Positions 872 through 63,933 of a DNA stretch of 64,000 nucleotides are shown in pieces. The stretch is from Candidatus Parvarchaeota archaeon. Lineage in GTDB: Archaea > Nanobdellota > Nanobdellia > Parvarchaeales > Parvarchaeaceae. The notes under the pieces were generated by a model, which was given only the letters and a program-made list of their open reading frames with translations, was not told the DNA's origin and did no database searches. Location: the NCBI GenBank assembly GCA_025920305.1, contig JAPDMB010000001.1:538-64537 (forward strand), given 5' to 3'. Position 1 is the stretch's first letter. The number at the start of each line of letters is the position of its first letter. Both the position numbers and the translations under genes were made by a program.

Positions 872-1204
872 ATGCGTATCAATTCAAGTTTTGGTATGGG
901 TACCGTACAGCATATTGATTTTATAACGGATAGGTATGACATTGATTTGAATGCGATATTCCAGAGAATAATCGAGAAGAACCATAAGAAGGTTGCCATT
1001 CAGCTTCCAGATGGTTTCAAGCGGCATGCTCTAGAGATGGCAAAAGCTATCTCTGAGAATACAGGCGCAGAGGTCTTTATATGGGGCGGGAGCAATTATG
1101 GCGCCTGCGATATACCTTATGGATTAGAGAAATTTGGAATAACCCTCCTTATCCAGTTTGGACATGCTAAATTCAGGGCAGATAACAGGGCCGATGGAAA
1201 ATGA
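872..1204 (+). CDS. dph2: diphthamide synthase Dph2, N-terminal domain only (split-gene fragment, 110 aa)
   Basis: The motifs VAIQLPDGF...EVFIWGGSNYGACD...LLIQFGH match domain 1 of archaeal Dph2 (cf. P. horikoshii Dph2 VLIQSPEGL...GEINYGACD...LIHLGHS), including the first cluster-ligand Cys. The ORF then stops and overlaps rnhB in another frame. Confidence 0.65.
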   Translation: MRINSSFGMGTVQHIDFITDRYDIDLNAIFQRIIEKNHKKVAIQLPDGFKRHALEMAKAISENTGAEVFIWGGSNYGACDIPYGLEKFGITLLIQFGHAKFRADNRADGK

Positions 1205-1859
1205 AGTCGTCATAGGGATAGACGAAGCGGGCAGGGGGCCGGTCATAGGCCCGATGGTGGTGGCCGGCGTGAGCCTTGATCCTGATCTGAACAGACGGTT
1301 TAAGGCAGCAGGGGTGAAGGATTCTAAGATGTTGAGCATAAGGAGGATATACCAGCTGGAAAGGATAATAAAGGAATTCAGCTTGGGCTTTAAAGTCATC
1401 GTAAGAACTGCGGCGGAGATAGACGACAGATTCAAGGCTAAGAAGAACCTAAATTATTTTGAGCTGGATGATATGTCTGATATAGCCAACTCGTTACAGG
1501 GGAAGAAAGTCATAGTGGATTCACCCTCTGCGAACGTCGCAAAGGTGAAGAGCTATCTTGAGAGGCGGGTAAAGGACAAGGAGATAATCGCTAGAAATTA
1601 TGCAGACCGGGATTTTGTAGAGGTGGGAGCTGCGTCGATACTCGCGAAGGCTCAGAGGGAGAGAGAGGTGGAGGCGATAAAGAAAGAACTGTCGTATGAT
1701 TTTGGGAGCGGATACGCCTCGGATCCAAGGACCATCGAATTCCTGAAGATAATAAAGGATAATGGCAGGATATATGATGAGCCATACTCCAAATACATAA
1801 GGAAGACCTGGTTGACGTTCAAAAACCTCACCAGGAAGAGCCTGAATGATTTTACCTAG
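1158..1859 (+). CDS. rnhB: ribonuclease HII
   Basis: VIGIDEAGRGPVIGPMVVAGV is the classic RNase HII active-site block. Length fits, about 220 aa. The true start is probably at MENEVV, position 1194. Confidence 0.9.
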   Translation: MDMLNSGQITGPMENEVVIGIDEAGRGPVIGPMVVAGVSLDPDLNRRFKAAGVKDSKMLSIRRIYQLERIIKEFSLGFKVIVRTAAEIDDRFKAKKNLNYFELDDMSDIANSLQGKKVIVDSPSANVAKVKSYLERRVKDKEIIARNYADRDFVEVGAASILAKAQREREVEAIKKELSYDFGSGYASDPRTIEFLKIIKDNGRIYDEPYSKYIRKTWLTFKNLTRKSLNDFT

Positions 1860-2287: not shown

Positions 2288-3460
2288 ATGTCTTATAGAT
2301 TTATTCATACCGGTGACACGCATATAGGCAACGTATACAAAGATAGCCAGAGAAACAATGACATTAAAGATGCGTTTATACAGCTTATAGACTACGCAAT
2401 AGATTCAAAGGTCGACTTCATAGTTCATTCCGGTGATCTATTCGACAGCGGTACACCAGATATAAACGATCTGCTGTTCATGACAGACCAGCTGCACAGG
2501 CTTAAAGACAATAATATAAAGATCTTCACTGTGCCAGGCTCTCACGATGTAGGCATAGGAGAGGAGCTTAGCATCGTTGATCTATTCGATAGGAATGGGC
2601 TCCTTGTAAATCTTAATTCAAGCAGATACATGAGGATGGAAGGCGGTAAGGTATACCTGAAAGGCGCTACATACCTAAACGCCTTCATAGCAGGGGTAAG
2701 GGGGAAAAGAAGCCGCGTAGAGGACGAGATATTCAAAGTGTTAAGCGTGGAGATGGATCAGAATGCATGGATTAAGATATTCGTCTTCCACCATACCATC
2801 TCTTCTCTAGGCGAAGCATTCAGCGATTTGGATACTGACAGCCTGCCCAAAGGCTTTGATTACTACGCAGCCGGTCATTGGCATGGCCATAAAGACAATA
2901 TTCAATATGGTAGTGGGATAATACAATACCCAGGCTCCACGGAGTACTGTGATGAGAAGGAGATGGTTGACAACCCAAACAGGGGGTTCTACGTAGTGGA
3001 GTACTCTGAGGGCGGTATAACTAGTGTGGAGTATCACCTCCTGAAGACGAGGGACAAGGACATAATACGTATAAACGCAGATGGTAAGGATTCTAAATCC
3101 ATAAAAACTGAGATCGTCTCGAATCTAAAGGAAAATGACGGTAAGATGCTGGTTATACTTGTAAACGGTAAACTCAATGGCAAGAGATCTGAGTTGGATA
3201 CGCAGGATATAAAATTACAGGCTAAGTCACTTGGATATTCATATGTCAGCATAAATACCTCTAAGATGCTAGATTCTGATTCGGACACTATAACTTTGAA
3301 GAGCGAGAACATAACGGATATAGAAGATGAATTTTTGTCGGCAAAAGGCTATAATAAAAAAGAGATAGCCCTCGCTCATACAATAATAGATATGATCGAG
3401 GAAGGCAAGGATCTAAGTGGCGTGAAATCCAAGGTTTTGGAGTTATATGATAATCAATGA
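2288..3460 (+). CDS. mre11: DNA double-strand break repair nuclease Mre11
   Basis: Calcineurin-like phosphoesterase motifs HTGDTHIG, HSGDLFD and GSHD. Immediately followed by rad50 with overlapping stop/start. Confidence 0.9.
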   Translation: MSYRFIHTGDTHIGNVYKDSQRNNDIKDAFIQLIDYAIDSKVDFIVHSGDLFDSGTPDINDLLFMTDQLHRLKDNNIKIFTVPGSHDVGIGEELSIVDLFDRNGLLVNLNSSRYMRMEGGKVYLKGATYLNAFIAGVRGKRSRVEDEIFKVLSVEMDQNAWIKIFVFHHTISSLGEAFSDLDTDSLPKGFDYYAAGHWHGHKDNIQYGSGIIQYPGSTEYCDEKEMVDNPNRGFYVVEYSEGGITSVEYHLLKTRDKDIIRINADGKDSKSIKTEIVSNLKENDGKMLVILVNGKLNGKRSELDTQDIKLQAKSLGYSYVSINTSKMLDSDSDTITLKSENITDIEDEFLSAKGYNKKEIALAHTIIDMIEEGKDLSGVKSKVLELYDNQ

Positions 3461-5837
3461 AATCAGCCTAAAAAACATCAGAAGTCACGTCGAATCAGAG
3501 ATATCGTTTAGCCCCGGGATAAATGTGATAGTGGGCAATACTGGGAGCGGAAAGTCGTCCATACTTATGAGCATAGAGTATGCACTGTTTGGAAAGATAG
3601 GAGAAGGTACAAATGAGGGCAAGATGCTTTTAAGGAGGGGCGAAAACAGCGGAAGAATATCTTTAGTGTTTACTGAAAACGGTAGGGAAATAAGAGTCAT
3701 GCGGGGGCTTAAGCGCGTAAAAGATGCCGTTAGGAACGATGACTCTATGAATAGCATATCCGTAGACGGCAGGGAAGTCGATCTGCAGAACAGATCATCC
3801 GACATAAGCACCTTTGTATCGAAAAGTCTCTCAATGAAAAGTGATCCTTTGAAAACGTTTGAGGCGGTCGTATACATAAAGCAGGATGAGCTTAAGGGTT
3901 TAGTCTTTGATACAACGCAGAAAAAACAAGAATACATAGACGACACTTTGCAAGTAGGGAAGTATGCCCTTGTGTACGATGGTATGCGGTCCCTGATGAT
4001 AGACTTACAGAATGAAGAAGCCCTCCTAAAGAAAGAGATAGAATTCTCCGTGGGAGACAAGGAGATAATAGAGACAAAAAGCAAGCTGCTGGATATAGAG
4101 AAGAATATTAAGAAGCTGTCTGACGACATAAACCTCCTAGAATCGAAGAGTGATGAGCTTGCGAAGGCCAGGAGAGCCTATGAGGAGAAGCTGGAAGCCG
4201 AGAAGGATCTGCAGCTGAAGTTCAATGTCTTGCGATCGTTGATAGATAAAGAAGCTAAAGAATTGGAGAAGCTGAAAGAAAGCGTGAAGGATCTACAGGT
4301 TGAGAGGGATCTTCTGTACGACAGAGTAAAGGACATGAAGCAAGAGGATGAGGGTGAACTCTTAAATAAACTTCATGAAATTGATAAGCTGGCAGACGCA
4401 TGCAATAAAGAGAAGGATATCCGGATAAAAGAGATGCATGAGTTGCAGATGAGGATAAGTGTACTTAATGATAGAAAGGGGAAAATAGAGGAAGAACTTA
4501 AAAAATACATAAAATATGTGGATGAAATCAGTAAATTAATCAGTGAGAAAAAAGCGGCTCTCGATGAAGCGAAAGTCCTTTTAAGTGATGATGAGATAAA
4601 CGCAAAAATCGAGCAGATAAAGGAGGTGATATCGGATATCACAGCGGACATGGAGAGGTCTATATCTAGCGGCATCTGCGTGTTCTGTGGATCTAGTATA
4701 ATAGACAGGCAGCACGTGGAGAAAGAATTCAAAGGGAGAATAAACGGATATAATCAGACCATATCGAAATTACAAGGGTTGAAATCGAATATATCAAAGA
4801 TCTCCAAGGCCAGTTTAGAGAAGGAGCTATTCTCTTTGGAGAAGGACATGTTGAATGCAAAGACCACCATAGATAATTTAACTAAAGAGTCGGATTCCAT
4901 ACATACAAGCGATCTAAGTTCTCAGCTTGAGAAATTTGAGACGGAACTGGACAAGCTGAAGCAGGAGCAGACAAGCCTTTCCGATGAGAAGCTAGAGATA
5001 GCCAGAAAATTGGAGGAGATATCAAAATCAAGGGCATTGTTCATGAAGCTGTCATCCATCGATTCAGAGATAGAACAGCGGTTGAAATTGATAGGAGATA
5101 AGGAGTCTAACATCGAAAAGAATAGATCAGATTTGAAGGACCTTAATTTCGATCCATCAATCTACGCAGGGCTTATGGATGAACTGAAACTCGTAGATGA
5201 AGATTATAATAAAGTTATATCGCAGCTAGCCGAGAGCAGAAAGGAGAAAGCGATGCTGGAAGAGAGGAGATCTGAGGAGAATGCCAGGCTTGAGGAAATA
5301 AAGAGCAAGCTAGAGACGAAGGAGAAGGCAAATTCGAAGCTGGTAAAACTCGAAAAGGCGATTAAAATGCTGTCTAATCTCCGAGAGGATATAAGGAGCA
5401 TAAGGGAATACGTGAGAAACAGGTTCATAGGCGATTTCAGGTCCTTATTTCAGACAAAATTCTACGAGCTTAGGAATGAGACTGACTACGCCGTAGACAT
5501 AGACAACAACTATAATGTTATAATAAAAAGCGACGGCGAAGTCTTTGAGTCAAAAAGCCTCTCCGGAGGGGAAAAAACCATAGTGGCTTTGGCTTATAGG
5601 ATCTCTCTGTCCTCCATAGCTGCGAAGTTGGGCGGGATAAGCCGTAACGAGATATTCATAATGGACGAACCGACGTCCGGCCTAGATAAAAAAGATGTCT
5701 CCTCTTTAGCCGACTCAATAACTAAGATAACTGGCGTGAATCAGATAATAATCGTAACGCACGATGATAACCTTAAGAATATAGCCGACAACATGATACG
5801 TGTTGAGAAAAAGGAAGGCGTTTCCGTGGTGATTTGA
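3447..5837 (+). CDS. rad50: DNA repair ATPase Rad50
   Basis: Walker A GNTGSGKSS. Long heptad coiled coil with a central CxxC zinc hook (CVFCGS). ABC signature LSGGEKTIVALAYRISL and Walker B IFIMDEPTSGLD. Confidence 0.92.
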   Translation: MIINEISLKNIRSHVESEISFSPGINVIVGNTGSGKSSILMSIEYALFGKIGEGTNEGKMLLRRGENSGRISLVFTENGREIRVMRGLKRVKDAVRNDDSMNSISVDGREVDLQNRSSDISTFVSKSLSMKSDPLKTFEAVVYIKQDELKGLVFDTTQKKQEYIDDTLQVGKYALVYDGMRSLMIDLQNEEALLKKEIEFSVGDKEIIETKSKLLDIEKNIKKLSDDINLLESKSDELAKARRAYEEKLEAEKDLQLKFNVLRSLIDKEAKELEKLKESVKDLQVERDLLYDRVKDMKQEDEGELLNKLHEIDKLADACNKEKDIRIKEMHELQMRISVLNDRKGKIEEELKKYIKYVDEISKLISEKKAALDEAKVLLSDDEINAKIEQIKEVISDITADMERSISSGICVFCGSSIIDRQHVEKEFKGRINGYNQTISKLQGLKSNISKISKASLEKELFSLEKDMLNAKTTIDNLTKESDSIHTSDLSSQLEKFETELDKLKQEQTSLSDEKLEIARKLEEISKSRALFMKLSSIDSEIEQRLKLIGDKESNIEKNRSDLKDLNFDPSIYAGLMDELKLVDEDYNKVISQLAESRKEKAMLEERRSEENARLEEIKSKLETKEKANSKLVKLEKAIKMLSNLREDIRSIREYVRNRFIGDFRSLFQTKFYELRNETDYAVDIDNNYNVIIKSDGEVFESKSLSGGEKTIVALAYRISLSSIAAKLGGISRNEIFIMDEPTSGLDKKDVSSLADSITKITGVNQIIIVTHDDNLKNIADNMIRVEKKEGVSVVI

Positions 5838-5875
5838 AGATATAATTATGCTCTAAGCCATATTATTATAGAATT

Positions 5876-6505
5876 ATGATAAAAGGCATAGCTTCGGATC
5901 TTGATGGTACGCTGTTAGACAGCACGGAACTGATCGCAAGAGCTTGGGAGGAAGCCCTGTCTTCGGAGGGCCTGCCAGCTGATTACTATGGAATTTTGAA
6001 GAGGACCAAGGGGATATCCTCTAAGGACATAATAAAGATGTACAAGGAAAACGCGGGGCCGGAGGATATAAAAAGGATTAAGGATAAGAGGAGGAAAAAT
6101 TTTCTTAGGTTGCTGGAAGACAGGAGGGATATCCTTTACCCGGAGACAATCAATGTCATAAGAAAAGTAAAAGAACGCGGCATAAAGTTCGCCATAGCAA
6201 CCGGTCTTTCAAGAGATCTCCTGGATCACGTGTTGGATGTAACTGGCTTGTCTTCGATTGTGGATTGCTCTATAAGTGCAGATGACGTGAGCCGAGGCAA
6301 GCCGGAACCGGATATCTTCTTGGAGGCTTTCAGGAGGCTGAATGTGGATCCGAAGGAAGGACTGGTGATTGGCGACAGCGAAAACGATATAATCCCTGGT
6401 AAGAAGATAGGCGCATTTACTGTCTTCATATCAAGGGAAGGCGGGAAGCTCGATATCGCAGATGCAGACATAAGCAATCTTGAAGAATTGTTCAAATTTC
6501 TATAA
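5876..6505 (+). CDS. HAD-superfamily hydrolase (phosphatase / beta-phosphoglucomutase-like)
   Basis: Motif I DLDGTLLDS at the N-terminus, and HAD motif III/IV GDSENDI near the C-terminus. Confidence 0.8.
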   Translation: MIKGIASDLDGTLLDSTELIARAWEEALSSEGLPADYYGILKRTKGISSKDIIKMYKENAGPEDIKRIKDKRRKNFLRLLEDRRDILYPETINVIRKVKERGIKFAIATGLSRDLLDHVLDVTGLSSIVDCSISADDVSRGKPEPDIFLEAFRRLNVDPKEGLVIGDSENDIIPGKKIGAFTVFISREGGKLDIADADISNLEELFKFL

Positions 6506-6554
6506 TAGGTGAAAAAAGGAATGGCTTAAATATAAGATATGTATAATAATAAAT

Positions 6555-8078
6555 ATGGTGGATATAAAACTCAGTGATAAGTTCTCAGATATATATATTC
6601 CAGGCGAGACCAAGAGATTTAAGATCTTCATCGGCGGTAAATGGGTAGAGACAAAGGACAAGTTCGATCTTATATCACCAATAGACAGCAGAAAAATGGC
6701 TGAAATATCCAGCGCAAGCAAAGAGGATATAGATGCAGCTGTAAAATACGCAGTAGAATCCAAGCATAAGATTAGGGACATGCCGGCTATCGACAGAATT
6801 GAACTCATAAACAAATTCAGGCTTGAGCTTGAAAAATATAAGGATGAGATAGTCGATGTGCTGATGAAGGAGGCTGGAAAAGCCAGGCGTTCTGCGGAGG
6901 GAGAATTCAATGCGACGATAGAGAGGATGCGGTTGGGCATGGAAGACTCAAGGAAGATAACAGGCGAATATATTCCAGGCGATTGGTCAAGCGATACTTC
7001 TCAAAAGGTCGCCTTGGTTTTAAGGGAGCCTCTAGGGGTGGTTTTAGGCATATCCCCTTTCAATTATCCATTTTACACCTCAATGGCAAAGGTCATCCCG
7101 GCATTGCTGTCTGGCAATTCAGTCATAATAAAACCTCCAAGTGTGGATCCTATAGCTTTCCTTATGGCAGCTAAGGTGTTCCAGGACGTAGGCGCCCCGG
7201 ACGGCATATTCCAGGCTGTCACAGGAAAGGGCGATGTAGCTGGCGATTACCTTACCTCGAATCCAAATATAAATATGATAAGCTTCACAGGCAGCACGGA
7301 TGTCGGCAAACATATAGCTGGAATAGCAGGTCTAAGGAAGACCCACCTTGAATTAGGCGGAAAGGGTACTGCGATAGTATTGGAAGACGCTGATCTTGAT
7401 CTAGCTGCGAGGGAATGCGTAAAAGGCTCCTTGGAACTAGCCGGGCAGAGGTGTGATGCAGTCAGCAGGATTTTAGCCGTGGACAAGATATATGACAAAT
7501 TTGTCGAGAAGCTAAAACAGCACCTACAGGATTACAAGTTTGGGAACCCCATTGAATCCCCTGACGTTACGATGGGCCCGGTGATAAGCAAAAGCGCCGC
7601 TAAGAGGATAGATGATCTAGTTAAGGATGCAGTCAGTAAGGGCGCAAAGCTACTAGCTGGAGGCAAATACAATGACTGCTATTATGAACCTACTTTACTT
7701 GTTGACACGCCGTTGAATGCCAAGATAGTCGATGAGGAGACTTTTGGACCGGTTATAACCTTGATAAAGGTGAAAGACAAGGCAGATGCTATAAATTTGG
7801 CTAACCAGTCGCGGTATGGACTTGATTCGAGTGTCTTCACAAATAAATTTTATGATGCTTGGGAGGTGATGAAGGCTTTGCAAGTAGGCAATGTCACTTT
7901 GAATGCCGCCCCATCCCATGGTACCGCTTATTTCCCATTTGGCGGCGTAAAAGACTCAGGCAGCGGGAAAGAAGGGGTAGGATACAGCATAGATGAGATG
8001 ACCTATACAAAGACGATAGTCTTCAATTTAGCGCCTGGAAACTTAGGCAAGAGATACACCGGTCAGTTTAAAGATTGA
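6555..8078 (+). CDS. NAD(P)+-dependent aldehyde dehydrogenase (possibly non-phosphorylating GAPN/glyceraldehyde dehydrogenase type)
   Basis: ALDH family motifs FTGSTDVGKHIA, ELGGKG, the catalytic Cys region QRCDAV and EETFGPV. Confidence 0.85.
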   Translation: MVDIKLSDKFSDIYIPGETKRFKIFIGGKWVETKDKFDLISPIDSRKMAEISSASKEDIDAAVKYAVESKHKIRDMPAIDRIELINKFRLELEKYKDEIVDVLMKEAGKARRSAEGEFNATIERMRLGMEDSRKITGEYIPGDWSSDTSQKVALVLREPLGVVLGISPFNYPFYTSMAKVIPALLSGNSVIIKPPSVDPIAFLMAAKVFQDVGAPDGIFQAVTGKGDVAGDYLTSNPNINMISFTGSTDVGKHIAGIAGLRKTHLELGGKGTAIVLEDADLDLAARECVKGSLELAGQRCDAVSRILAVDKIYDKFVEKLKQHLQDYKFGNPIESPDVTMGPVISKSAAKRIDDLVKDAVSKGAKLLAGGKYNDCYYEPTLLVDTPLNAKIVDEETFGPVITLIKVKDKADAINLANQSRYGLDSSVFTNKFYDAWEVMKALQVGNVTLNAAPSHGTAYFPFGGVKDSGSGKEGVGYSIDEMTYTKTIVFNLAPGNLGKRYTGQFKD

Positions 8079-22587: not shown

Positions 22588-23277
22588 TTAAGGCGGTACG
22601 CATTGGGCGGATTCCTCAGAGTACGTTGGTACATATACCACCATTATTACTGAGTTCACTGAAGATGGCAGCGAGGAGCTACCGGCTACATTACCAGAAT
22701 TCGCTGACTTCGGCAGGCTGAATATCTGCGTGCCGTTCATATAAAGCGCTGTCAGATTGAAATTAGTTGGCACAGCGGAATTTGAGGCATTAAGGAAGGT
22801 AATATTGTAAGAGATAGATCCTGGACTTAAACTATAATCGCTTATGATCTTTGATATTGGCAGGTCAAGACTAAGCATAGCTACGGCTCCATTTGAAGTT
22901 TTTAAGATGGATACATAAGCCTGAAATTGGCCGCCATTTAGCGGTAAGATTCCGCTCATATTCATATTAGAGGTAGTTGAGACTTCATGTCCAGTTTTTG
23001 AGTTTAGCACCAGAATGTCTCCGCAGAAAAAAGAAGGGCTAGCCAGTCCTGGAGAAAAAAATGAGAGACTATACGTCGAACCTACACTCTGGCTGGATAG
23101 CTCATCTACGGTGTTCACTATCCCGTTGCTCATCTCAGAAAGTTGATTATAGTTAGCAGAGTTATTGAAACTAGAGTACATGTACATCGCTATGAACAGG
23201 AAAACCGCAAGGATCATCAGCGCGACCCCTATAAGTGTTATGTACTCTATCGATGCCTGTGCAGCTCTGGTTTTCAT
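22588..23277 (-). CDS. archaeal type IV pilin-like protein (class III signal peptide)
   Basis: N-terminus MKTRAAQASIEYITLIGVALMIL: short positive region, Q-x-S-I-E-Y like the Methanococcus QISLEF pilin motif, then a hydrophobic helix. S/N/T-rich body with many N-glycosylation sequons. Confidence 0.6.
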   Translation of the reverse strand: MKTRAAQASIEYITLIGVALMILAVFLFIAMYMYSSFNNSANYNQLSEMSNGIVNTVDELSSQSVGSTYSLSFFSPGLASPSFFCGDILVLNSKTGHEVSTTSNMNMSGILPLNGGQFQAYVSILKTSNGAVAMLSLDLPISKIISDYSLSPGSISYNITFLNASNSAVPTNFNLTALYMNGTQIFSLPKSANSGNVAGSSSLPSSVNSVIMVVYVPTYSEESAQCVPP

Positions 23278-23879
23278 ATTTTATTTTTCTTTAGATATTT
23301 GTCTACAATATTTATTATCTTGTTTTTTACCGTCTCCACATTGCCATTTCCATCCACGACCTTGATATGAAAATTGTTCGCTATCATCAGGAAAGCCTTC
23401 CTTACATCCGAGAGCTGCTTCGCCGTATTAAACATCTCAAAGCTTGTAGTGAGGTCGGATATCCTGCTTAAGCTAACCGTCGGCTTAACGTCTATAAGTA
23501 TCCCTAAATCAGGTAGTCTAAATGACAGATTGACCTGTCTAAGCCATTTATAGTTCAGTCCTGAAGCATACCCATACGCTAAGGTAGAAAATATATACCT
23601 ATCGCATATTACGATCTTGTTCGCGTTTATTGCAGGCTGTATCGTTGTCTCCAGATGGTTCGCTCTATCCGCCGAGAACAGCAGCTGTAATACTCTTCCT
23701 GACAATTTTATATCCCTATTTAGGCTGCTTCTTATTATCCCCCCTATAACACTGTTCGTTGGCTCACTCGTAAGCAGAGTGTGATATCCTTTCTCTTTAA
23801 GATAGATCTCCAGCAATGTAGCCTGAGTATTAAGACCGGCGCCGTCTAAGCCCTCAAGCACTATCAATTTTCCAGCCAT
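23274..23879 (-). CDS. thymidylate kinase paralogue with degenerate P-loop and LID (probably inactive or with changed function)
   Basis: Thymidylate-kinase fold signature DRYIFSTLAYG is present. The Walker A reads EGLDGAGLNTQ, with the Lys replaced by Leu. There is no Arg-rich LID. Stop/start overlap with the pilin gene downstream. Confidence 0.65.
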   Translation of the reverse strand: MAGKLIVLEGLDGAGLNTQATLLEIYLKEKGYHTLLTSEPTNSVIGGIIRSSLNRDIKLSGRVLQLLFSADRANHLETTIQPAINANKIVICDRYIFSTLAYGYASGLNYKWLRQVNLSFRLPDLGILIDVKPTVSLSRISDLTTSFEMFNTAKQLSDVRKAFLMIANNFHIKVVDGNGNVETVKNKIINIVDKYLKKNKI

Positions 23880-23937: not shown

Positions 23938-24552
23938 TTATTTACTTTTTATTATTGATTTTATACGGCTGGATACCTCTAAATTTACTTCATCTATGTC
24001 ATTTGATGCGTCCACAGTTATCCAGTTCTTGGTTGGAAAACGTTCTTTTTTCAGTTTCAAATAATTCTCCCTTATCCTTTTTAGTCTCTTCAAGTCACCT
24101 TCGAATCTCTCCGCTTTTCCGGTTCTCAGCCTGCGTAGAGATGTCTCAGGCGGTATATCTAAGTATATTACTACATCCGGCTTCCTTAGACGTAAGATCC
24201 TTATGATCTCCTTTATATCTCTACACCCCACTCCATCTTTCGTCTGATAAGCCAGGGTGGAGACGAAATATCTGTCTAATATTACAGTGTATCCCTCTCT
24301 TAATTTTTTCGTCAAATCTGGCTGGTCCATAGACATGTCCAAAAGGAATAACATTACCTGCTCATATTCGTTGAGTTCTACTTTATTCCTTATAAAATCT
24401 CTAAGTAGTTTTCCATACACATTGTTTTTACTTGGATATTTATAGACTTTATTTTTAATATGCATCCTTTTTAGTAATGCGACGGTCCGTCTTATCTGTG
24501 TGCTTTTTCCAGCTTTATCTATGCCTTCGAAATCTACCAGTTTTCCGTTCAT
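23938..24552 (-). CDS. tmk: thymidylate kinase
   Basis: Canonical P-loop EGIDKAGKSTQ, DRYFVSTLAYQ and an Arg-rich LID (LRRLRTGKAERFEGD). Confidence 0.9.
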   Translation of the reverse strand: MNGKLVDFEGIDKAGKSTQIRRTVALLKRMHIKNKVYKYPSKNNVYGKLLRDFIRNKVELNEYEQVMLFLLDMSMDQPDLTKKLREGYTVILDRYFVSTLAYQTKDGVGCRDIKEIIRILRLRKPDVVIYLDIPPETSLRRLRTGKAERFEGDLKRLKRIRENYLKLKKERFPTKNWITVDASNDIDEVNLEVSSRIKSIIKSK

Positions 24553-40363: not shown

Positions 40364-41449
40364 ATGGTAATGGATATTTTGGTGGAAAGTGCTTTACGAG
40401 CCGGTAAAGAGCAGATTTCGTCTGAAGATGCGCTCTTCAATCAAGCGCAGATAAAAGTTATTGGAATCGGCGGTGCAGGGAATAATATGGCCTCATGGCT
40501 TCATAAAAAAGGAGTAAAGGGAGCGGAGATAGTGATAGCTAACACTGATCAGGTGCAGTTGAACTCTAGGACAGCAGATAAGAAACTGCTCATCGGGAAG
40601 GAGACCACAAGAGGATTGGGCGCCGGCGGGTTCCCTGAGAAGGGGAAACAAGCTGCAGAGGAGTCCGCTCAGTCCATAAAGGACTCTTTGAGAGGCAGTG
40701 ACCTTGTATTTATATGCGCCGGACTTGGCGGCGGAACTGGCACTGGCGGTGCGCCAGTTGTAGCTAAGATCGCAAAGGAACTTGGTGCTATAGTTATAAG
40801 CACTGTGACCATGCCTTTCAAGACCGAGAGGAAGCGGGTGGAGAACGCTGAAATGGGGCTCCAGGAGCTCAGGAACGTATCTGATACCGTGATAGTGATA
40901 GACAATAACAGACTCGTCAACTTTGCCGGTAATCTGCCCATAGACCAGGCTTTCAACATAGCCAATGAAGTCGTGGCTACAATGATAAAAGGGATAGTTG
41001 AGACTATTGCTATACCTTCTCTCGTCAACCTGGATTTCGCCGATATAAAGGCGATAATGAACAAAGGCGGTGTTTCTGTGATAGGTATAGGAGAGACAGA
41101 CGCTTCTGATTCAAGGGTCGCAGAGGTGGTCAAGCGTGCGCTTAACAACCCACTTTTGGATGTAAGCTACAAAGGCGCTAAGGGCGCATTGATACATATA
41201 ACCGGCGGACCAGACATGACCTTGTCAGAGGTCAATGAGATCGGAGAGCTAGCCACCCAATCGCTGGATTCCGATGCGATTGTGATCTGGGGTGCTAGGG
41301 TGGATGAATCATTCTCAGGCAAGCTGAGGGTGATGACAATCGTGACTGGAGTAAGTTCGCCTTACCTATTGGGCCCGGAGGACACAGCGGTCATCTCTAA
41401 GACGAGCTCGGCTATAAGCAAAGAGCTTGGCATAGAGATACTAAAGTAA
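40364..41449 (+). CDS. ftsZ: cell division GTPase FtsZ (paralogue 1)
   Basis: Tubulin/FtsZ signature GGGTGTGGAP. N-terminus IKVIGIGGAGNN. Strong SD (aaaggaggg) upstream. Confidence 0.95.
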   Translation: MVMDILVESALRAGKEQISSEDALFNQAQIKVIGIGGAGNNMASWLHKKGVKGAEIVIANTDQVQLNSRTADKKLLIGKETTRGLGAGGFPEKGKQAAEESAQSIKDSLRGSDLVFICAGLGGGTGTGGAPVVAKIAKELGAIVISTVTMPFKTERKRVENAEMGLQELRNVSDTVIVIDNNRLVNFAGNLPIDQAFNIANEVVATMIKGIVETIAIPSLVNLDFADIKAIMNKGGVSVIGIGETDASDSRVAEVVKRALNNPLLDVSYKGAKGALIHITGGPDMTLSEVNEIGELATQSLDSDAIVIWGARVDESFSGKLRVMTIVTGVSSPYLLGPEDTAVISKTSSAISKELGIEILK

Positions 41450-45759: not shown

Positions 45760-46485
45760 ATGTATTTCATAATAGATGTCATGGAACCTACATCTTTCAG
45801 GGTCAGCAGTGGAATAACAGGCTTCGATCAGCTTGTAAATGGCGGTTTGGTGTCAAATACCGTCTCAGCGCTTTTCGGCTCCCCTGGCGCAGGGAAAAGT
45901 ATATTCGCCCTTAGCTTTCTAAGGGCTGGATTGAAGGAAAATGAGAAGGTGTTCTACATCAGTTTAGAGCAGGACTTGGATGCAATACTTAGGGAAGCGG
46001 ATTCTCTTGGTTTTACTGAGTTTAGGGAGAACATGAACACAAACTTCGTTTTCGTTAGGATGACCGGCCACGATTTCAAGGAGTTCTTACTTGTGGATCT
46101 GCCAAAGATATTAGAAAGCAGGACTGGAAAACATTCAAGGATAGTCGTGGATCCGTTGACACCGCTGTTCTGGGAAATCCATGATATAGCGATGCAGAGG
46201 AATCTTTTGAGTAATGCCTTCGATATGCTTCGCTCATTTGGCACGTCTATCGTCACGGTAGAAAAATATGGTAATCTAAACGTGCTGGACTTATCAGAGG
46301 AGCTGGCCATACCGCTATATTTGTCGGACTGTGTGATATTGCTCACGATGATATTCAATCAAAACTTCTATCAAAAGGCCATATCCATCCTCAAGTTCAG
46401 ATATTCCTCCCACAGTTCAGGCTTGCACCCCTTCGATATAGAGCAGGGTGGGATAAAGATATTCCAGGACCAGCCTGTCTTCTGA
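45760..46485 (+). CDS. KaiC/RecA-superfamily ATPase (RadB/KaiC-like)
   Basis: GFDQLVNGGL...ALFGSPGAGKS Walker A in the RecA-like arrangement. 241 aa. Confidence 0.7.
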   Translation: MYFIIDVMEPTSFRVSSGITGFDQLVNGGLVSNTVSALFGSPGAGKSIFALSFLRAGLKENEKVFYISLEQDLDAILREADSLGFTEFRENMNTNFVFVRMTGHDFKEFLLVDLPKILESRTGKHSRIVVDPLTPLFWEIHDIAMQRNLLSNAFDMLRSFGTSIVTVEKYGNLNVLDLSEELAIPLYLSDCVILLTMIFNQNFYQKAISILKFRYSSHSSGLHPFDIEQGGIKIFQDQPVF

Positions 46486-46490
46486 GAGGC

Positions 46491-48398
46491 GTGGATATGA
46501 AAGTAAAGTTCAGAGATAAGATTTACGAATCGAATGAGAGAAGCTCTTTCTTGAAGCTCGCGGAATCAGTCGGCATAGATATAAAAGAGGTAATAACTGT
46601 AAAAGCGGGTGGTAAACTATTCGATTTATCCTCAAGTGTCCCGGATGTAAACGAAGTCGAGTTCCTAGATTTCAATAGCCCAGAGGGGAAGATGGTATTT
46701 TGGCATTCATCTGCGCATATCTTGGCTGACGCGGTAAAGCGTCTGTATCCCGAGGCTTTATTGGGTATAGGTCCTCCAATCGACGGAGGTTTTTACTATG
46801 ATTTTTATAATCTAAACATAGGAGACAATGACCTTAAAAGGATAGAGGAGGAGATGAAGGCGATCTCGAAGGAGAATAATAAGTTCGAGAGGATACCATT
46901 GACAAGGGAAGAGGCCGAGAAGAGACTAAGTGGAGAGAGGTTCAAACTTGAGATATTGAATGACCTGACAGGTGAAATAACACTTTATAGAGATGGAAAA
47001 TTCGAGGATCTATGCAGGGGGCCTCATATTCTATCAACAGGGGCGGTTAAGGCGGTAAAGCTCCTTAAGGTATCAGGCGCCTATTGGAAGGGGGATAATA
47101 AGCGCGAGTCCATGACTAGAATATACGGCATAACTTTTCCTTCAAAAGAGGAGTTGGATGAATATCTCAAATTCTTAGAGGAGCGAAAGGCACATGACCA
47201 CAAGAAGATAGGCAGAGAATTAGAATTGTTCGAATTTTTAGATGTATCGCCAGGTTCTCCTTTCATGCTGCCAAAAGGGACGATAATCTACAATGAACTT
47301 GTCAAACTTGCAAGAGAATACGACACTAAATATGGCTATCAGGAGGTAATAACTCCCTTCATCGCGAAGGTCGATCTTTGGAAGATAAGCGGGCATTTTG
47401 ATAAATATAGAGAGAATATGTTTGAGGTCAAACCATTTGAATCCGATGAAGAATACGCTTTGAAGCCGATGAGCTGCCCATTTCATGTACTAATATTTAA
47501 ATCGAAGACACGTAGTTACAAGGAACTTCCTCTTCGGATATCTGAGCACGGCATAGTGCATAGGTACGAACTGGAGGGGGCGCTGGATGGTCTTTTAAGA
47601 ACAAGGGTGCTGCAGCAGAATGACGCGCATGTCTTCGTCAGCGAGGATCAGATAGAGGATGAGATACTGTTCGAACTGAAAGAACTCAAAGAGATATATG
47701 AGATATTTGATCTATCTCCAGTATTTATCGCTGCTACAAGGCCTGATAAAAGGATAGGGGAGGATGAGCTTTGGGATAAAGCGGAGAATGCAATCTTCAG
47801 AGCGCTTGAAAAGGCCGGCTATAAGTACACCATTAAGGAAAAAGACGGGTCATTTTATGGACCGAAGATAGATATATATGTCCTTGACTTTACAGGCAAG
47901 CCGGAAGCGGCTTATGCTGTGTCGACGATACAGGTAGACTTCAATTTAGCCAGAAGGTTTGATGCAAAGTACACCGGGAAGGACGACAAAGAGCACATAC
48001 CTGTCGTGATACACCGCTCAATACTAGGCTCCTTTGGCAGGTTTATGGGGGTAATACTTTCGAATTCTAAAGGCGAGCTTCCGTTATGGCTGTCTCCAGT
48101 GCAGGTAAAAGTGCTGCCTATAAGTGACAGCAATAAGCCGTATGCCGAGGAGGTTGCGGAAAGACTAATGAAGGATAAAATAAGGGTTGAATTGGATGAA
48201 TCAAATTCGACATTGGACAGAAAAATACGCACTTCTCAGTTGGAGAAAGTTCCATACACGGTTGTGGTAGGCGAGAAAGAGGAAAAGAGTAAAACTATAG
48301 CAGTTAGGGATAGGTCAGGCAAAACCAGTTATAATGTAGATTTAAGTAAGTTTATATCGGATTTGACGGAGAAAATCAGGCTAAGGTCTAAAGCTTAA
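46491..48398 (+). CDS. thrS: threonyl-tRNA synthetase
   Basis: Class II motifs (FRALEKAGYKY..., HRSILGSFGRFMGVIL), N-terminal archaeal editing/TGS region, C-terminal anticodon-binding domain. 635 aa. Confidence 0.92.
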   Translation: MDMKVKFRDKIYESNERSSFLKLAESVGIDIKEVITVKAGGKLFDLSSSVPDVNEVEFLDFNSPEGKMVFWHSSAHILADAVKRLYPEALLGIGPPIDGGFYYDFYNLNIGDNDLKRIEEEMKAISKENNKFERIPLTREEAEKRLSGERFKLEILNDLTGEITLYRDGKFEDLCRGPHILSTGAVKAVKLLKVSGAYWKGDNKRESMTRIYGITFPSKEELDEYLKFLEERKAHDHKKIGRELELFEFLDVSPGSPFMLPKGTIIYNELVKLAREYDTKYGYQEVITPFIAKVDLWKISGHFDKYRENMFEVKPFESDEEYALKPMSCPFHVLIFKSKTRSYKELPLRISEHGIVHRYELEGALDGLLRTRVLQQNDAHVFVSEDQIEDEILFELKELKEIYEIFDLSPVFIAATRPDKRIGEDELWDKAENAIFRALEKAGYKYTIKEKDGSFYGPKIDIYVLDFTGKPEAAYAVSTIQVDFNLARRFDAKYTGKDDKEHIPVVIHRSILGSFGRFMGVILSNSKGELPLWLSPVQVKVLPISDSNKPYAEEVAERLMKDKIRVELDESNSTLDRKIRTSQLEKVPYTVVVGEKEEKSKTIAVRDRSGKTSYNVDLSKFISDLTEKIRLRSKA

Positions 48399-48939
48399 TC
48401 TCCTCATCTACGAAGCTTCTGACTTTGTCTATAAATGCAGAATCTAAACCGTCGTCGCTCATCACAACAAACACCGTCTTCTGCTTCTTTTCATGCGTCA
48501 AAGAAGAGATGTAGTGTATAAATCTGAGCATCTCGTTCTGCGAGTTGTAGATCGAAAAAGAGGTTATAGAATCTATAAATATGAATAAATTTTTCTCCAA
48601 ATTTATCATATTCTCCAGGTTTATACTCAGCCTCGTTAGATCAGCAGGCGAATCTAGCACTATTATATTTTCGCTAGGCTTTGGTATCTTCCTATAAAGC
48701 GAGCTTGTTATAGTGTCTATAATCTTGTATTTTTTTATACCAGTGGATGATAATTGGCTTTCAATCGTATCCCCAGGGACGCTTCCCGTGACATAGATCG
48801 GCATGAAGCCCATGCTGTTGATATTATTGAAGATATAATTAAAGTTGTCGTTTAATTTATCCCTTTCGTTAAGGAGTAGAAGGCTTACATTCGAATTTAT
48901 CAGCCTTTTGATGCTGTTAGTTATATCATCTCCATTCAT
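48388..48939 (-). CDS. KaiC/RecA-like domain protein with degenerate Walker A
   Basis: Composition and layout look like a KaiC-like fold (IYVTGSVPGDT where a P-loop would be). No GK[ST]. Confidence 0.4.
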   Translation of the reverse strand: MNGDDITNSIKRLINSNVSLLLLNERDKLNDNFNYIFNNINSMGFMPIYVTGSVPGDTIESQLSSTGIKKYKIIDTITSSLYRKIPKPSENIIVLDSPADLTRLSINLENMINLEKNLFIFIDSITSFSIYNSQNEMLRFIHYISSLTHEKKQKTVFVVMSDDGLDSAFIDKVRSFVDEEIKL

Positions 48940-48988: not shown

Positions 48989-49071
48989 CGCTGGGAATGG
49001 GATTCGAACCCATGCATCCTTTCGGAAACAGGCTCTCCAAACCTGCGCCGTAACCGCTTGGCTATCCCAGC
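48989..49071 (-). tRNA. tRNA-Ser (anticodon GGA)
   Basis: Reverse complement: acceptor GCTGGGA/TCCCAGC, discriminator G. 3-bp D-stem. Anticodon stem CAGGT/GCCTG with loop TTGGAGA. Long variable arm (TCC-GAAA-GGA). T-arm ATGGG-TTCGAAT-CCCAT. Confidence 0.8.
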
Positions 49072-49100: not shown

Positions 49101-49790
49101 TCAATTATTTAAATAATCTCTTAGATCTTCAACGTTCACTATCGGCTTTTCCAGCTTATCCATATCGTCGATGGCAATCCTTTGGCATGCTGTATTTATG
49201 AAGACATCCACATCTCTAAACTCGTTCAGCCTTTGAAAGTTTATCTCATCGAACACAATCGTATATACCTCTACGCCTCTCTCTGCAAGTTTTTCTTTTA
49301 TATCCTTTGCACCAGCCGTCTGCCCTGACTTTATCGACTCTACGAACATGACCTTCTTAGCATTCAAGGCGATGCCTATGGCCTGCATCATCCTTTTTTT
49401 GTAATTTTGTACGAGCTTCTCGTCCATCTCCTCTATATTCTCATTTTCTACGTCAACATTTATCACCTTCTTTTCAGTCTTCATAAGGACACCCATTATA
49501 TGGAACATACCCTGCGTAAAAGCCAGGATCACATCGCAGTCATCGCATTCTGCGGCATATTGATCGCATCCAAGTATCTGCCCCGGATACGCGGCTCTGT
49601 ATTTGGAAGAAAGCAGGACGAACTCTTTGTCTTTTATCTTATCTTTCACATAAGCCATCTGATCTAAATATTGTATCACTCCAATCAAGTTAACCTTTTT
49701 GTATGGTTTTAGCTTCTCCTTTATTCTCTCCAAAAGCGCATCGCTTATCTTCCCCTTATACCTCGATTCTACAAACATAGTTTCCATCAT
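49101..49790 (-). CDS. dph2: diphthamide synthase Dph2, C-terminal two domains (split-gene fragment, 229 aa)
   Basis: Aligns from the domain 1/2 boundary to the end of archaeal Dph2: FVESRY...ISDALLERIKEKL, AAYPGQILGCD (second cluster Cys, cf. WPGQVLGCN), VFINTACQRIAIDD (third Cys, cf. VVVACPRVPLDD). The N-terminal domain is the ORF at 872..1204. Confidence 0.7.
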   Translation of the reverse strand: MMETMFVESRYKGKISDALLERIKEKLKPYKKVNLIGVIQYLDQMAYVKDKIKDKEFVLLSSKYRAAYPGQILGCDQYAAECDDCDVILAFTQGMFHIMGVLMKTEKKVINVDVENENIEEMDEKLVQNYKKRMMQAIGIALNAKKVMFVESIKSGQTAGAKDIKEKLAERGVEVYTIVFDEINFQRLNEFRDVDVFINTACQRIAIDDMDKLEKPIVNVEDLRDYLNN

Positions 49791-49844: not shown

Positions 49845-50213
49845 ATGGAAGCGAAGCTAGTGTTAAATGATCCGTCTACGGAAAAGTCATACAGCCGGGT
49901 CATATCCAATGAGGAGATCGATAATCTGCTTGGATTGAAGATAGGTGACGAATTCGATATGTCATTTTTAGGATTGGACGGTTACAAGGGCAGAGTAACT
50001 GGTGGAAGCTACATGACAGGCACTCCTATGGATAAAAGCATAGACGGCACCGGATTGAAGAGGGTGCTCAAGGTCTTAAATAAGCATGGGCTGAGAAAGA
50101 GGAAGAGCGTCGCAGGAAATACGATAAGCCAGTTCACCTCTCAGATAAATGTAAAGATAGTTAGTTATGGCAGTAAGAAGTTGGATGAGATTTTCGTGAA
50201 AAATAATGGTTGA
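49845..50213 (+). CDS. rps6e: 30S ribosomal protein S6e
   Basis: KLVLNDPSTEKSY...KIGDEFDMSFLGLDGYKGRVTGGS...GTPMDKSIDG matches the S6e pattern. Confidence 0.88.
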   Translation: MEAKLVLNDPSTEKSYSRVISNEEIDNLLGLKIGDEFDMSFLGLDGYKGRVTGGSYMTGTPMDKSIDGTGLKRVLKVLNKHGLRKRKSVAGNTISQFTSQINVKIVSYGSKKLDEIFVKNNG

Positions 50214-51390
50214 AGATATAATCGTTGATCTCGTAGGTAATTTTGCAGACGGTAAGACTACCCTTGTAAAGGCTCTGACAAACGAATCAGCGCTTAGACA
50301 CAGCGAAGAGAAGAAGAGGGGGATAACCATACGTCTTGGCTATGCGCACTTCAAGCTTTTCAAATGCAATAGCTGTGGCAAGTTCAGCAGGTTTGAAAGA
50401 TGCGAGTTTTGCGGAGGCAGCACCGAATTGTTCCGCAGGGTCTCAATAATAGATTCTCCTGGACATAGGATGCTGATGACCACTATGCTCAGTGGCATAG
50501 GCTTGGCAGATGGAGCGATTATGGTCATCTCAGCGATAAATCCATGCCCCCAGCCTCAGACTGAGGAGCACATGGAAGCCATAAATCTGTTGGGTATAAA
50601 GAACTTAGTCGTTGCCCAAACTAAAGTGGACTTAGCTGGTGAGTCAAAAGCTAAGGAGAATTACAATCAGATAAGAGCTTTCTTGGAGAAGAATGGATTC
50701 TCAAATACGAATATAATACCGACTTTTGCCAATCAAAATATAAACATCCAAGAGATAATCCAGGAGATCGGTAAATTTGATATCTCTAACAGAGACGTCA
50801 GCGGGAAGCCTAAGATGCAGGTTATAAGGAGCTTCGATGTGAATAAGCCAGGCACGAGGATAGAGGATCTGAAAGGCGGTGTTTTGGGAGGCGGGCTCGT
50901 TTCCGGTAGGCTTTCCGTAGGCGATGAAGTGGTCTTAACTCCAAATGTTTCGGCAGGCAGTAAATTCAAGTCTATAAGAACAAAGATCATGTACATACAG
51001 AGCGAATTCGGTGAAGAAAAATCCGCTACAAGGGGGCTGTCCATCGGAGTCCTAACCAAATTAGACCCATCTATAGTAAGGAGAGACGCCTTAGTTGGGA
51101 GTTTGATCACCGACGCCGACAACTTGCCAATTCTTGATAATAAGCTGCGGATGACATATGATCCTATACCAGGCAAGACCATATTTGATAAACCTCTTCA
51201 AAAGGGGGAGAGCATACTTATAAACGTTCTGTCTTCCAGAGCGATCGGGATAATACAGGACATCTCTAAGGGAGGGATATCGCTGGTTTTAGGCGAGGTT
51301 TCCATACCTTTCTTTACGGGCGATAAGGTGATAGTATCCAGAAAGGTAAAGAATGCATGGACATTGGCTGGCTCTGGCATAATTTTATGA
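50206..51390 (+). CDS. translation initiation factor aIF2 gamma subunit
   Basis: G domain (GNFADGKTTL, DSPGH, QTKVD). Zinc ribbon CNSCGKFSRFERCEFCGG inserted in the G domain. Domains II/III follow. Confidence 0.9.
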   Translation: MVEDIIVDLVGNFADGKTTLVKALTNESALRHSEEKKRGITIRLGYAHFKLFKCNSCGKFSRFERCEFCGGSTELFRRVSIIDSPGHRMLMTTMLSGIGLADGAIMVISAINPCPQPQTEEHMEAINLLGIKNLVVAQTKVDLAGESKAKENYNQIRAFLEKNGFSNTNIIPTFANQNINIQEIIQEIGKFDISNRDVSGKPKMQVIRSFDVNKPGTRIEDLKGGVLGGGLVSGRLSVGDEVVLTPNVSAGSKFKSIRTKIMYIQSEFGEEKSATRGLSIGVLTKLDPSIVRRDALVGSLITDADNLPILDNKLRMTYDPIPGKTIFDKPLQKGESILINVLSSRAIGIIQDISKGGISLVLGEVSIPFFTGDKVIVSRKVKNAWTLAGSGIIL

Positions 51391-52745: not shown

Positions 52746-53879
52746 ATGGAAATGAATAGGATTACTGCATCAAGCATATCTAATGAGGGGGTCAAGGCCC
52801 CAAATATCGACATAAGTAGGACCAAGGAATTCGATAAGGCTTTAGAAGATCTTATAACCAATAGGCGGACCAGTATAAAGGTGGTAGGTGTCGGCGGCTC
52901 CGGCAACAATACTCTGAACAGAATGTTCGAGGTGGGCATCAAAGGCGCAGAGCTGATCGCGATGAATACAGATGCCGCTGATCTTCTATGTACCCCTTCT
53001 GATAAGAAGGTACTGCTTGGAAAGGAACTTACGAAAGGGCTCGGTGCCGGTGCTAATTCAGAGATTGGCGAAGCGGCTGCCAAAGAGCAGGAGCAGGAGA
53101 TAAAAGACGTCCTTCAAGGAGCCGATATGGTTTTCATATGCGGCGGCATGGGCGGTGGCACAGGGACTGGCGGTATACCTGTCGTAGCCAGGGTGGCTAA
53201 AAAACTGAACGCTCTAACCATAGCCGTCGTTACGTTACCATTCAAGATGGAAGGCAAGAATAGGATGAATACAGCGATGAGTGGCATAGAGAAACTGAAA
53301 GATGTGGTTGATACGCTGATAGTGATACCAAATGAGAAATTAAGGGCTATAGCTCCTGATCTCCCTCTACCTATAGCTTTGAAGGTTGCCGATGATGTTC
53401 TTACTAACGCTGTCAAGGGCATAACAGAGCTGATAACAAGGCCTGGTCTGATAAATGTGGATTTTGCTGATGTGAAGGCGATAATGTCAAACGGTGGAGT
53501 AGCTCTTATAAGTTCTGCGGAAAGCGACGCGAAGGACAAGAAGATAGAGACTATAGTCGAAAAAGTCTTGAATAACCCTCTGATAGACGTGGATCTTTCA
53601 ACTGCTAAAGGCATGCTGATAGATGTAAGCGGCGGCTCGTCCCTGACGTTGGAAGAGGCTAGTTCAGTTGTAGATTTGGTCAGCAGGAGGCTCCCAGAAA
53701 ATATAAATGTCATCTGGGGTGCGCATATCTTCCCGGATCTTAAGAATACTATAAGGGTTATGGCTATAATAACGGGCGTGACTTCTAAGCAGATATTCGG
53801 TAAATCCATATCGGAAGAGAAGGAACTTAAGGATAAGCGGGAAGTGGAAGAAGAGCTGGGCATAAAGTTTTTAGGGTAG
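52746..53879 (+). CDS. ftsZ: cell division GTPase FtsZ (paralogue 2)
   Basis: Motifs: IKVVGVGGSGNN, GGGTGTGGIP. Followed by secE as in Euryarchaeota. Confidence 0.93.
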   Translation: MEMNRITASSISNEGVKAPNIDISRTKEFDKALEDLITNRRTSIKVVGVGGSGNNTLNRMFEVGIKGAELIAMNTDAADLLCTPSDKKVLLGKELTKGLGAGANSEIGEAAAKEQEQEIKDVLQGADMVFICGGMGGGTGTGGIPVVARVAKKLNALTIAVVTLPFKMEGKNRMNTAMSGIEKLKDVVDTLIVIPNEKLRAIAPDLPLPIALKVADDVLTNAVKGITELITRPGLINVDFADVKAIMSNGGVALISSAESDAKDKKIETIVEKVLNNPLIDVDLSTAKGMLIDVSGGSSLTLEEASSVVDLVSRRLPENINVIWGAHIFPDLKNTIRVMAIITGVTSKQIFGKSISEEKELKDKREVEEELGIKFLG

Positions 53880-63267: not shown

Positions 63268-63933
63268 ATGGACTCTCTTGCAGTCGGCATAGATTCCTTC
63301 GATAAGGTTGTCGGGGGGATACCAATGCATAGGAATTACCTGCTCAATGGATCGAAGGAGAGTGGGAAGGACCTATTCGCTTATCATCTTACGCTGTCAG
63401 CCCTGGCTAATAAGGTCGGTGTGATCTATATAACCTCCAGTAAAAGTGCAAGTGACCTTCTATCTAGCTTCTCCCTGAGGAATATAAATATATCCCAATA
63501 TCTTGGGAATTCGCTCAAAATAGTGGATAACTTCATCAGAAACATCCAGCCGGATGCGAAGGATAACGCCTACACAAGGGTATTGAACGGACCGTTGGAT
63601 TTGACAGGCCTTGCTGTGGCGGTGTCATCGCTGAACAGCGATTTCATAAAGGATGGGAAGACGACCATCAATATCTTCGATTCTGTGTCCTCCCTGCTTC
63701 TATCCAATAACTCAAACACCATCTTCAGATTTTTACAGTTCATATGCGGCAAGTCAAAGATATCCGGCGTTACCAGTCTGTTTTTAATAGACAGTGATAT
63801 GCATCCCCCGGATATCAATGAGACTATAAAGTCTCTGATGGATGGGGTCATAAATCTTAAGTTAGAGAATGGTGTTAGATATTTCACTTTTACAGGGACT
63901 GAGAAGGAGGTGCTCAATTGGACGCAGTTATAA
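63268..63933 (+). CDS. KaiC-like / FlaH(ArlH)-like RecA-superfamily protein with a non-canonical P-loop
   Basis: GIDSFDKVVGGIPMHRNYLLNGSKESGKDLFAYHL: RecA/KaiC-type layout with the P-loop reading GSKESGKD (Asp in place of Ser/Thr). 221 aa, similar in size to archaellum FlaH. Confidence 0.5.
   Translation: MDSLAVGIDSFDKVVGGIPMHRNYLLNGSKESGKDLFAYHLTLSALANKVGVIYITSSKSASDLLSSFSLRNINISQYLGNSLKIVDNFIRNIQPDAKDNAYTRVLNGPLDLTGLAVAVSSLNSDFIKDGKTTINIFDSVSSLLLSNNSNTIFRFLQFICGKSKISGVTSLFLIDSDMHPPDINETIKSLMDGVINLKLENGVRYFTFTGTEKEVLNWTQL

Follow-up and report, generated by a model that had tools for sequence, protein, structure and literature searches.

The 64,000-nucleotide stretch of DNA analysed here (the window) encodes the archaeal diphthamide synthase Dph2 as two separate genes, dph2-N and dph2-C, and the products of these genes together cover the whole Dph2 fold. 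Dph2 belongs to the non-canonical radical-SAM [4Fe-4S] enzymes; it moves the 3-amino-3-carboxypropyl group from SAM onto a histidine of EF-2, which is the first step of diphthamide synthesis. In the host, a tiny acid-mine archaeon of the DPANN lineage Parvarchaeota, Dph2 is most likely a complete enzyme formed from two separately transcribed genes whose products associate non-covalently (probability about 85%). Judging from sequence comparisons, the split Dph2 of the window is very probably real and functional. The nearest named relative among the loci listed is Ca. Acidifodinimicrobium mancum, with 85% identity on the N piece.

An earlier note, made from the letters of the window, had placed the two parts of Dph2 in ORFs at 872..1204 (+) and 49101..49790 (-), and both ORFs are present. 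The note had linked split genes of this kind to Nanoarchaeota-like reduced archaeal genomes; the host is a member of the Parvarchaeota and is not Nanoarchaeota-like. The two genes and their neighbours are listed below.

872..1204, + strand: dph2-N, N-terminal piece of Dph2; ORF of 110 aa from the ATG at 872
1194..1859, + strand: rnhB (RNase HII); begins inside the end of dph2-N, in a conserved gene pair
48989..49071, - strand: tRNA-Ser(GGA), 29 nt downstream of dph2-C
49101..49790, - strand: dph2-C, C-terminal piece of Dph2; ORF of 229 aa, annotated start at 49787 giving 228 aa
49845..50213, + strand: rps6e, divergent from dph2-C; conserved neighbour
50206..51390, + strand: aIF2-gamma, after rps6e; conserved neighbour of dph2-C

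The dph2-N product matches positions 1-58 of the 302 positions of the Pfam profile PF01866 (E 1.4e-11, 44.8 bits) and positions 1-66 of the 308 positions of TIGR03682, the archaeal Dph2 model. In an alignment to the solved structure 6bxm_A (Ca. Methanoperedens Dph2), it spans residues 4-85. The N piece corresponds to the first ~85 residues of archaeal Dph2. Its likelier start is the annotated ATG at 896, the second Met, which is used by gene callers in the public assemblies and gives a protein of 102 aa. The lengths of 110 and 229 aa in the earlier note are correct for the ORFs, and the gene callers give 102 and 228 aa. The N piece ends with the GH motif and the tail AKFRADNRADGK, leaving 11 residues after GH. 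The stop codon of dph2-N (1202-1204) lies within rnhB, and the two genes overlap by 11 nt in different frames if rnhB begins at its probable ATG at 1194; the earlier note had described an overlap with rnhB in another frame.

The dph2-C product matches PF01866 over profile positions 64-288 of 302 (E 6e-39, 134.6 bits) and TIGR03682 over positions 72-297 of 308. In the alignment to 6bxm_A it spans residues 93-308. Both pieces exceed the PF01866 gathering score of 33.2. The dph2-C gene has an ATG start behind an A/T-rich, TATA-like stretch.

The N and C pieces are complementary in PF01866, TIGR03682, 6bxm, 6q2d and 3lzc, with no overlap and a gap of a few residues. This complementary coverage bears out the proposed division into an N gene and a C gene, and the C ORF resumes where the N ORF ends, as had been noted. 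Both pieces are significant matches to the three-domain Dph2 family PF01866, and the two genes lie 48 kb apart on opposite strands, an arrangement that does not encode a single-polypeptide homodimer. On TIGR03682 the N piece scores 58.9 bits and the C piece 153.5 bits, each below an equivalog cut-off (202.8) that was built for one chain; their simple sum is 212.4. A tblastn search with four full-length Dph2 proteins found no further Dph2-like segment within the 64-kb window.

All three cluster ligands are kept: the N piece supplies one and the C piece the other two. In the P. horikoshii enzyme (PhDph2) the [4Fe-4S] ligands are Cys59, Cys163 and Cys287, one per domain (PMC11048331). The tagged 3lzc chain is numbered with an offset of 36, which was set by the Cys-Asp pair. 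In the N piece, Cys79 (GACD, codon 1106..1108) is aligned with 3lzc chain residue 95, which is PhDph2 Cys59. In the C piece, Cys75 (ILGCD, 49566..49568) is aligned with chain residue 199, which is PhDph2 Cys163, and Cys202 (TACQR, 49185..49187) with chain residue 323, which is PhDph2 Cys287. These are the one N-piece and two C-piece cysteines that the earlier note had pointed out. Across 40 diverse aligned N pieces, neither the ligand Cys-Asp nor the GH motif varies.

All SAM-contact residues fall in the C piece. In CmnDph2 these contacts are G158, H180, Q237, V265, R285, D289 and D290 (PMC10669111). This residue list was mapped by hand on the alignment of the C piece to the structure. The predicted SAM-pocket residues of the C piece are G74, H97, Q157, I183, R204, D208 and D209; six of the seven are identical to those of CmnDph2, and V265 is replaced by Ile. 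An alignment of 17 C pieces shows no variation at the ligand cysteines, at Q157 or at H97.

AlphaFold2 was run on an artificial fusion of the N and C pieces, not on two chains. Given a block alignment that combined N-piece, C-piece and two full-length homologues, the fused model has a mean pLDDT of 87.6 and a pTM of 0.80; without an alignment the pLDDT was 41 and the model was unusable. The junction is the sole weak internal stretch of the fused model, with a mean pLDDT of 53 over residues 91-100 and values below 50 at residues 99-101. In a Foldseek search, the fused model matches 6q2d, 6q2e, 6bxm-o and 3lzc/d over 314-332 columns with TM scores of 0.73-0.84, and nothing significant was found besides the solved Dph2 structures. 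DSSP assigns four main strands to each of three alpha/beta units in the fused model, and a further strand (220-224) separates unit 2 from unit 3. In unit 1, the fourth strand is formed by fusion residues 105-109 (ETMFV), with which the C piece opens. A comparison of the N and C profiles with hhalign gives a weak internal-repeat match (E 0.03, probability 1.7%). Its register, which is a hint only, sets the N-piece sequence ending in LLIQFGHAKFRA opposite the domain 2 sequence ending in VILAFTQGMFHI, before the last strand of that unit.

The break would fall in a low-confidence surface loop of the model, after strand 3 (the GH motif) of the first alpha/beta unit. Given the pattern of four strands per unit in the fused model and the weak internal-repeat alignment, the C-piece strand ETMFV probably completes the domain 1 sheet of the N piece. 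The proposal that the break lies at a domain boundary is thus approximate: the cut appears to come slightly earlier, with the last strand of domain 1 probably supplied by the C piece. A first joint MAFFT alignment placed the N homologues on domain 2 of the C piece and was discarded; this misplacement arose because the three Dph2 domains are internal repeats. Automated annotation, or the concatenation of split halves, could be led astray in the same way.

Each piece is found as a stand-alone protein across the Parvarchaeota. The N-piece homologues, from relatives of ARMAN-4/5, are 95-117 aa long and 61-85% identical, and the C-piece homologues are 226-242 aa long (226-245 aa among the stand-alone homologues) and 52-86% identical. 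The nearest matches to the C piece that approach intact length are proteins of 310 aa (37% identity) and 340 aa (33% identity). The earlier note had suggested looking for both halves in related genomes, where they are conserved down to 61% (N) and 52% (C) identity. In a search of a representative library with the N piece, the best match is no better than 1e-16; another protein collection has N-piece homologues at 100-61% identity. The Parvarchaeota N-piece cluster seems to be absent from the representative library or to be otherwise represented in it.

Each gene also keeps its own neighbours. The dph2-N/rnhB overlap followed by mre11 and rad50 is the same in the window and in a relative with 63% identity (L001), and this arrangement also occurs in L089-L091. 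The divergent arrangement of dph2-C and rps6e-aIF2gamma is the same in L002-L008, where the C pieces are 57-65% identical, and in L092 and L093. The downstream side of dph2-C is variable among relatives (L002 and L005 differ), and the upstream rps6e-aIF2gamma pair is fixed. In one Parvarchaeota group (L005-L008, positions 5001-6882), a gene for an archaeal AdoMet synthetase, the enzyme that makes the Dph2 co-substrate, begins two bases after dph2-C. In the window, the tRNA-Ser gene and a KaiC-like ORF are found there instead.

The window has three KaiC/RecA-like ATPase ORFs (45760..46485, +; 48388..48939, -; 63268..63933, +). The middle ORF encodes 183 aa and scores 27.7 bits (E 2e-6) against a gathering score of 26.6. 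The window also contains two FtsZ genes within 12 kb (40364..41449, +; 52746..53879, +) and two tandem thymidylate-kinase paralogues (23274..23879, -; 23938..24552, -) that match PF02223 with E values of 6.5e-42 and 1.4e-37. The thymidylate-kinase duplication stands in an otherwise reduced genome. A sigma-70 promoter and terminator scan is inapplicable to an archaeon and was disregarded.

These patterns bear on gene decay, in which a rearrangement would have broken dph2 and left two ORFs without function while the lineage loses diphthamide. PMC6143161 describes diphthamide genes as missing from several archaeal lineages, and the remaining pathway (dph5, dph6 and EF-2) is absent among the ORFs scanned in the 64-kb window. 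However, neither ORF is disrupted, conservation reaches down to 52-61% identity in many Parvarchaeota genomes, every ligand and SAM-contact residue is retained, each piece has conserved neighbours, and the split persists in all of the best 80 of at least 595 species-level loci. Frameshifts or stops across many relatives were not seen. Decay is very improbable, as remnants would not survive such divergence.

An assembly artefact is less credible still. The window comes from a metagenome-assembled genome, in which a chimeric contig or a misjoin could have placed one gene in two spots. Against this, the N ORF has its own stop codon and overlaps rnhB, and the C ORF has its own ATG behind the TATA-like stretch. 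The 102-aa N protein and the C protein have identical copies in three NCBI assemblies, and the contexts are identical in these three independent assemblies, in two of which the halves lie on different contigs. The two contexts also recur in relatives from other samples. Because both pieces are conserved as stand-alone proteins, each with its own conserved neighbours and in three assemblies, the two genes are best regarded as a genuine split. The earlier note had likewise preferred a split gene to decay, and the complementary halves, the retained catalytic residues and the lineage-wide conservation of the contexts agree with it.

The split form extends beyond the Parvarchaeota. A search with the N piece against 1.84 billion cluster representatives gave 611 matches, and among the best 150 of these, which were examined, 69 are proteins of at most 140 aa. 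Long repetitive proteins that fit only the Gly-rich Cys loop were excluded as spurious. The best 150 of the 611 matches and 21 N-piece homologues together provide 87 short proteins with the motifs. The tail after GH is 4-24 residues long in 83 of the 87 and 33-44 residues long in the remaining four, at least some of which look as if they were cut by a contig end. Proteins of intact length in the same match set (at least 290 aa, n = 28) have 229-333 residues after GH, and the figure for intact Dph2 is about 250.

In a genome scan that took a single genome for each GTDB species, at least 595 loci were confirmed, and the best 80 of these were examined. The reading frame is usable in 78 of the 80, and all 78 stop 4-19 residues after GH. 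In one further locus the contig ends 6 residues beyond GH, and the frame of the last is unusable. The scan pattern, W-x-[GS]-...-CD, favours split-type sequences, so the finding that all of the best 80 loci are split indicates that the split form is widespread and gives no measure of its fraction among archaea. The titles of the 80 loci name Parvarchaeota/Acidifodinimicrobium, Woesearchaeota, Nanoarchaeota and many doubtful 'Methanosarcinales'. A Woesearchaeota-type split N piece with the tail GHSTWRGTWY or GHSTWRGSWY occurs in dozens of MAGs that bear the title 'uncultured Methanosarcinales archaeon' and come from binchicken assemblies (L015, L020, L023, L025-L028 and many others). The 'Methanosarcinales' label of these MAG records looks wrong.

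The distance between the two genes varies. A C-piece gene lies on the same strand within 1.3 kb downstream of the N gene in 19 of the best 80 loci. In some of these, stop and start overlap or abut, as TGG TAA TGG in L022, L066 and L069 (near 3265-3270 or 915); other adjacent N and C genes are separated by 1-94 nt. One unrelated gene stands between the halves in five loci. The intervening gene belongs to the UDG family in L056 and L072 and is a YhcG/DUF1016 nuclease in L083; those in L055 and L086 have no Pfam match. Halves that overlap, abut or are one gene apart occur in some Woesearchaeota/Nanoarchaeota genomes, and in the Parvarchaeota the halves are fully separated.

The split N pieces share sequence features. 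Of 83 split N pieces, 74 have a Trp at the position 8 residues ahead of the ligand Cys, where 2 of 31 intact proteins have one and most intact enzymes have Ser. These counts are biased, since the matches were ranked by how similar they are to a split query. The enrichment of Trp hints at common descent of the split N pieces. The tails after GH are rich in aromatic residues and conserved within lineages (for example, L013-L021 and P0081, P0100 and P0108). Parvarchaeota have the tail FRAD, many Woesearchaeota have STWRG[ST]W[YH], and in another group the protein finishes with N-x-F-x-K-x(3)-G-W. This conservation suggests a role for the N-piece tail, perhaps in docking to the C piece.

The gene arrangements and the piece ends also bear on whether the two halves are joined after expression. 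The halves of the Nanoarchaeum equitans DNA polymerase are joined by a split intein. Another DPANN lineage offers a precedent in the trans-joined tRNAs and the split DNA polymerase I listed for N. equitans (PMC3655853), and a single-chain Dph2 could in principle be restored by split-intein protein trans-splicing or by RNA trans-splicing. However, the N piece has 11 residues after GH and the C piece starts at a conserved strand, which leaves no room for a split intein, and PF01866 is the sole Pfam family in both pieces. The abutting genes of related genomes, with a stop/start overlap or a few nucleotides between them, resemble ordinary coupled genes. Joining into one chain is highly improbable.

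A division of labour is also very unlikely. The two pieces could have separate functions, with, for example, the C piece alone acting as the enzyme and the N piece working alongside RNase HII; the SAM pocket and two of the three ligands are in the C piece, and the N gene forms a conserved overlapping pair with rnhB. Yet the ligand Cys-Asp and GH are invariant in the aligned N pieces, and in lineage-level searches neither piece was found alone in any lineage. The close relatives of the C piece are all of C-only length and those of the N piece all of N-only length. In some genomes the two are adjacent genes on the same strand, which is consistent with co-transcription. Non-covalent association of the two products into one complete Dph2 remains the preferred reading.

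In the proposed mechanism, the two polypeptides would associate non-covalently, with the first C-piece strand, ETMFV, probably completing the N-piece beta-sheet. Ligation of the [4Fe-4S] cluster would span the interface through N Cys79, C Cys75 and C Cys202, so that the 12-kDa N piece would give one ligand and the 26-kDa C piece two. SAM would bind in a pocket wholly within the C piece. If the pair behaves like the archaeal Dph2 homodimer, its active form may be a heterotetramer, (N+C)2.

Fission in place, at the loop after GH, is the most likely origin of the split. A stop codon and a new start would have appeared in this surface loop, and a later insertion followed by genome rearrangement would have dispersed the dph2 halves. 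The order of fission and then dispersal is suggested by the series of adjacent or overlapping, one-gene-inserted and dispersed halves in the genomes. A single ancient fission common to a large DPANN clade, giving an obligate two-chain enzyme with a cross-interface cluster, is put forward tentatively and at less than even odds. This clade may comprise the Parvarchaeota, the Woesearchaeota/Pacearchaeota and the 'Nanoarchaeota' in the wide sense. The points in favour of a single fission are the derived Trp before the ligand Cys that is common to the split forms, the lineage-specific conserved aromatic tails (for example, GHSTWRGTWY) and the gene-order series, which begins with adjacent overlapping genes, passes by way of a single inserted gene and ends in dispersal.

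The split Dph2 of the window is already known as an instance of the published DPANN split Dph1/2. Split Dph1/2 in DPANN archaea is described by Narrowe et al. 2018 (Genome Biol Evol, PMC6143161), and the summary of it in Dombrowski et al. 2019 (PMC6349945) lists it for Parvarchaeota, Pacearchaeota, Woesearchaeota and Altiarchaeota. With the split already in the literature for DPANN archaea, including Parvarchaeota, what is seen here is a correct rediscovery, and NCBI already names the window proteins as diphthamide synthesis proteins of Parvarchaeota. The separate N and C genes are the same as those of Narrowe et al., with nothing essential different. The passages of PMC6143161 and PMC6349945 on the split genes describe neither the exact break point (4-19 residues after GH) nor the conserved rnhB and rps6e-aIF2gamma contexts, and the same passages do not describe the adjacent-to-dispersed series or a chain-bridging Fe-S cluster. 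The break point, contexts, series and cross-chain cluster are incremental additions to the published split. For Nst1, a nanoarchaeon from Yellowstone, Podar et al. 2013 (PMC3655853) listed a split DPH2 (Nst 222 and Nst 440). This system is alike in having two distant genes in a reduced DPANN genome and differs in belonging to another phylum. The same paper lists Nanoarchaeum equitans as being without Dph2. The Undinarchaeota paper uses 'split' in another sense and contains nothing on Dph.

Compared with the single-chain archaeal Dph2 homodimers (3LZC/3LZD, P. horikoshii; 6BXM-O, Ca. Methanoperedens nitroreducens; 6Q2D/E, Methanobrevibacter smithii), the split Dph2 is 28-33% identical over the whole fold. 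It has the same three Cys ligands and SAM-pocket residues but consists of two polypeptides rather than one. Where intact Dph2 has a loop of 7-11 residues after GH, the split form has the chain end AKFRADNRADGK and the new start MMET. The eukaryotic Dph1-Dph2 heterodimer is likewise made of two different polypeptides of the Dph2 family. Unlike the split Dph2, in which one three-domain protomer is cut in two, Dph1 and Dph2 are full-length three-domain paralogues. The searched literature contains no biochemical study of a two-chain Dph2.

Dph2 is a single-copy marker in archaeal completeness sets, and the split leads to miscounts in these genomes, a problem of which Narrowe et al. warn (PMC6143161). 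The split Dph2 predicts a [4Fe-4S] cluster held jointly by a 12-kDa and a 26-kDa polypeptide, and it would be a natural test of how much chain connectivity the non-canonical radical-SAM fold needs. If the two-chain radical-SAM Dph2 is true, biochemistry would gain an Fe-S enzyme that is split by nature. The common break point and the adjacent-to-dispersed series illustrate gene fission in reduced genomes. The break point and the gene-order series may also give a rare-genomic-change character for relationships within DPANN, and a single fission, if true, would be a marker of this kind usable for DPANN phylogeny.
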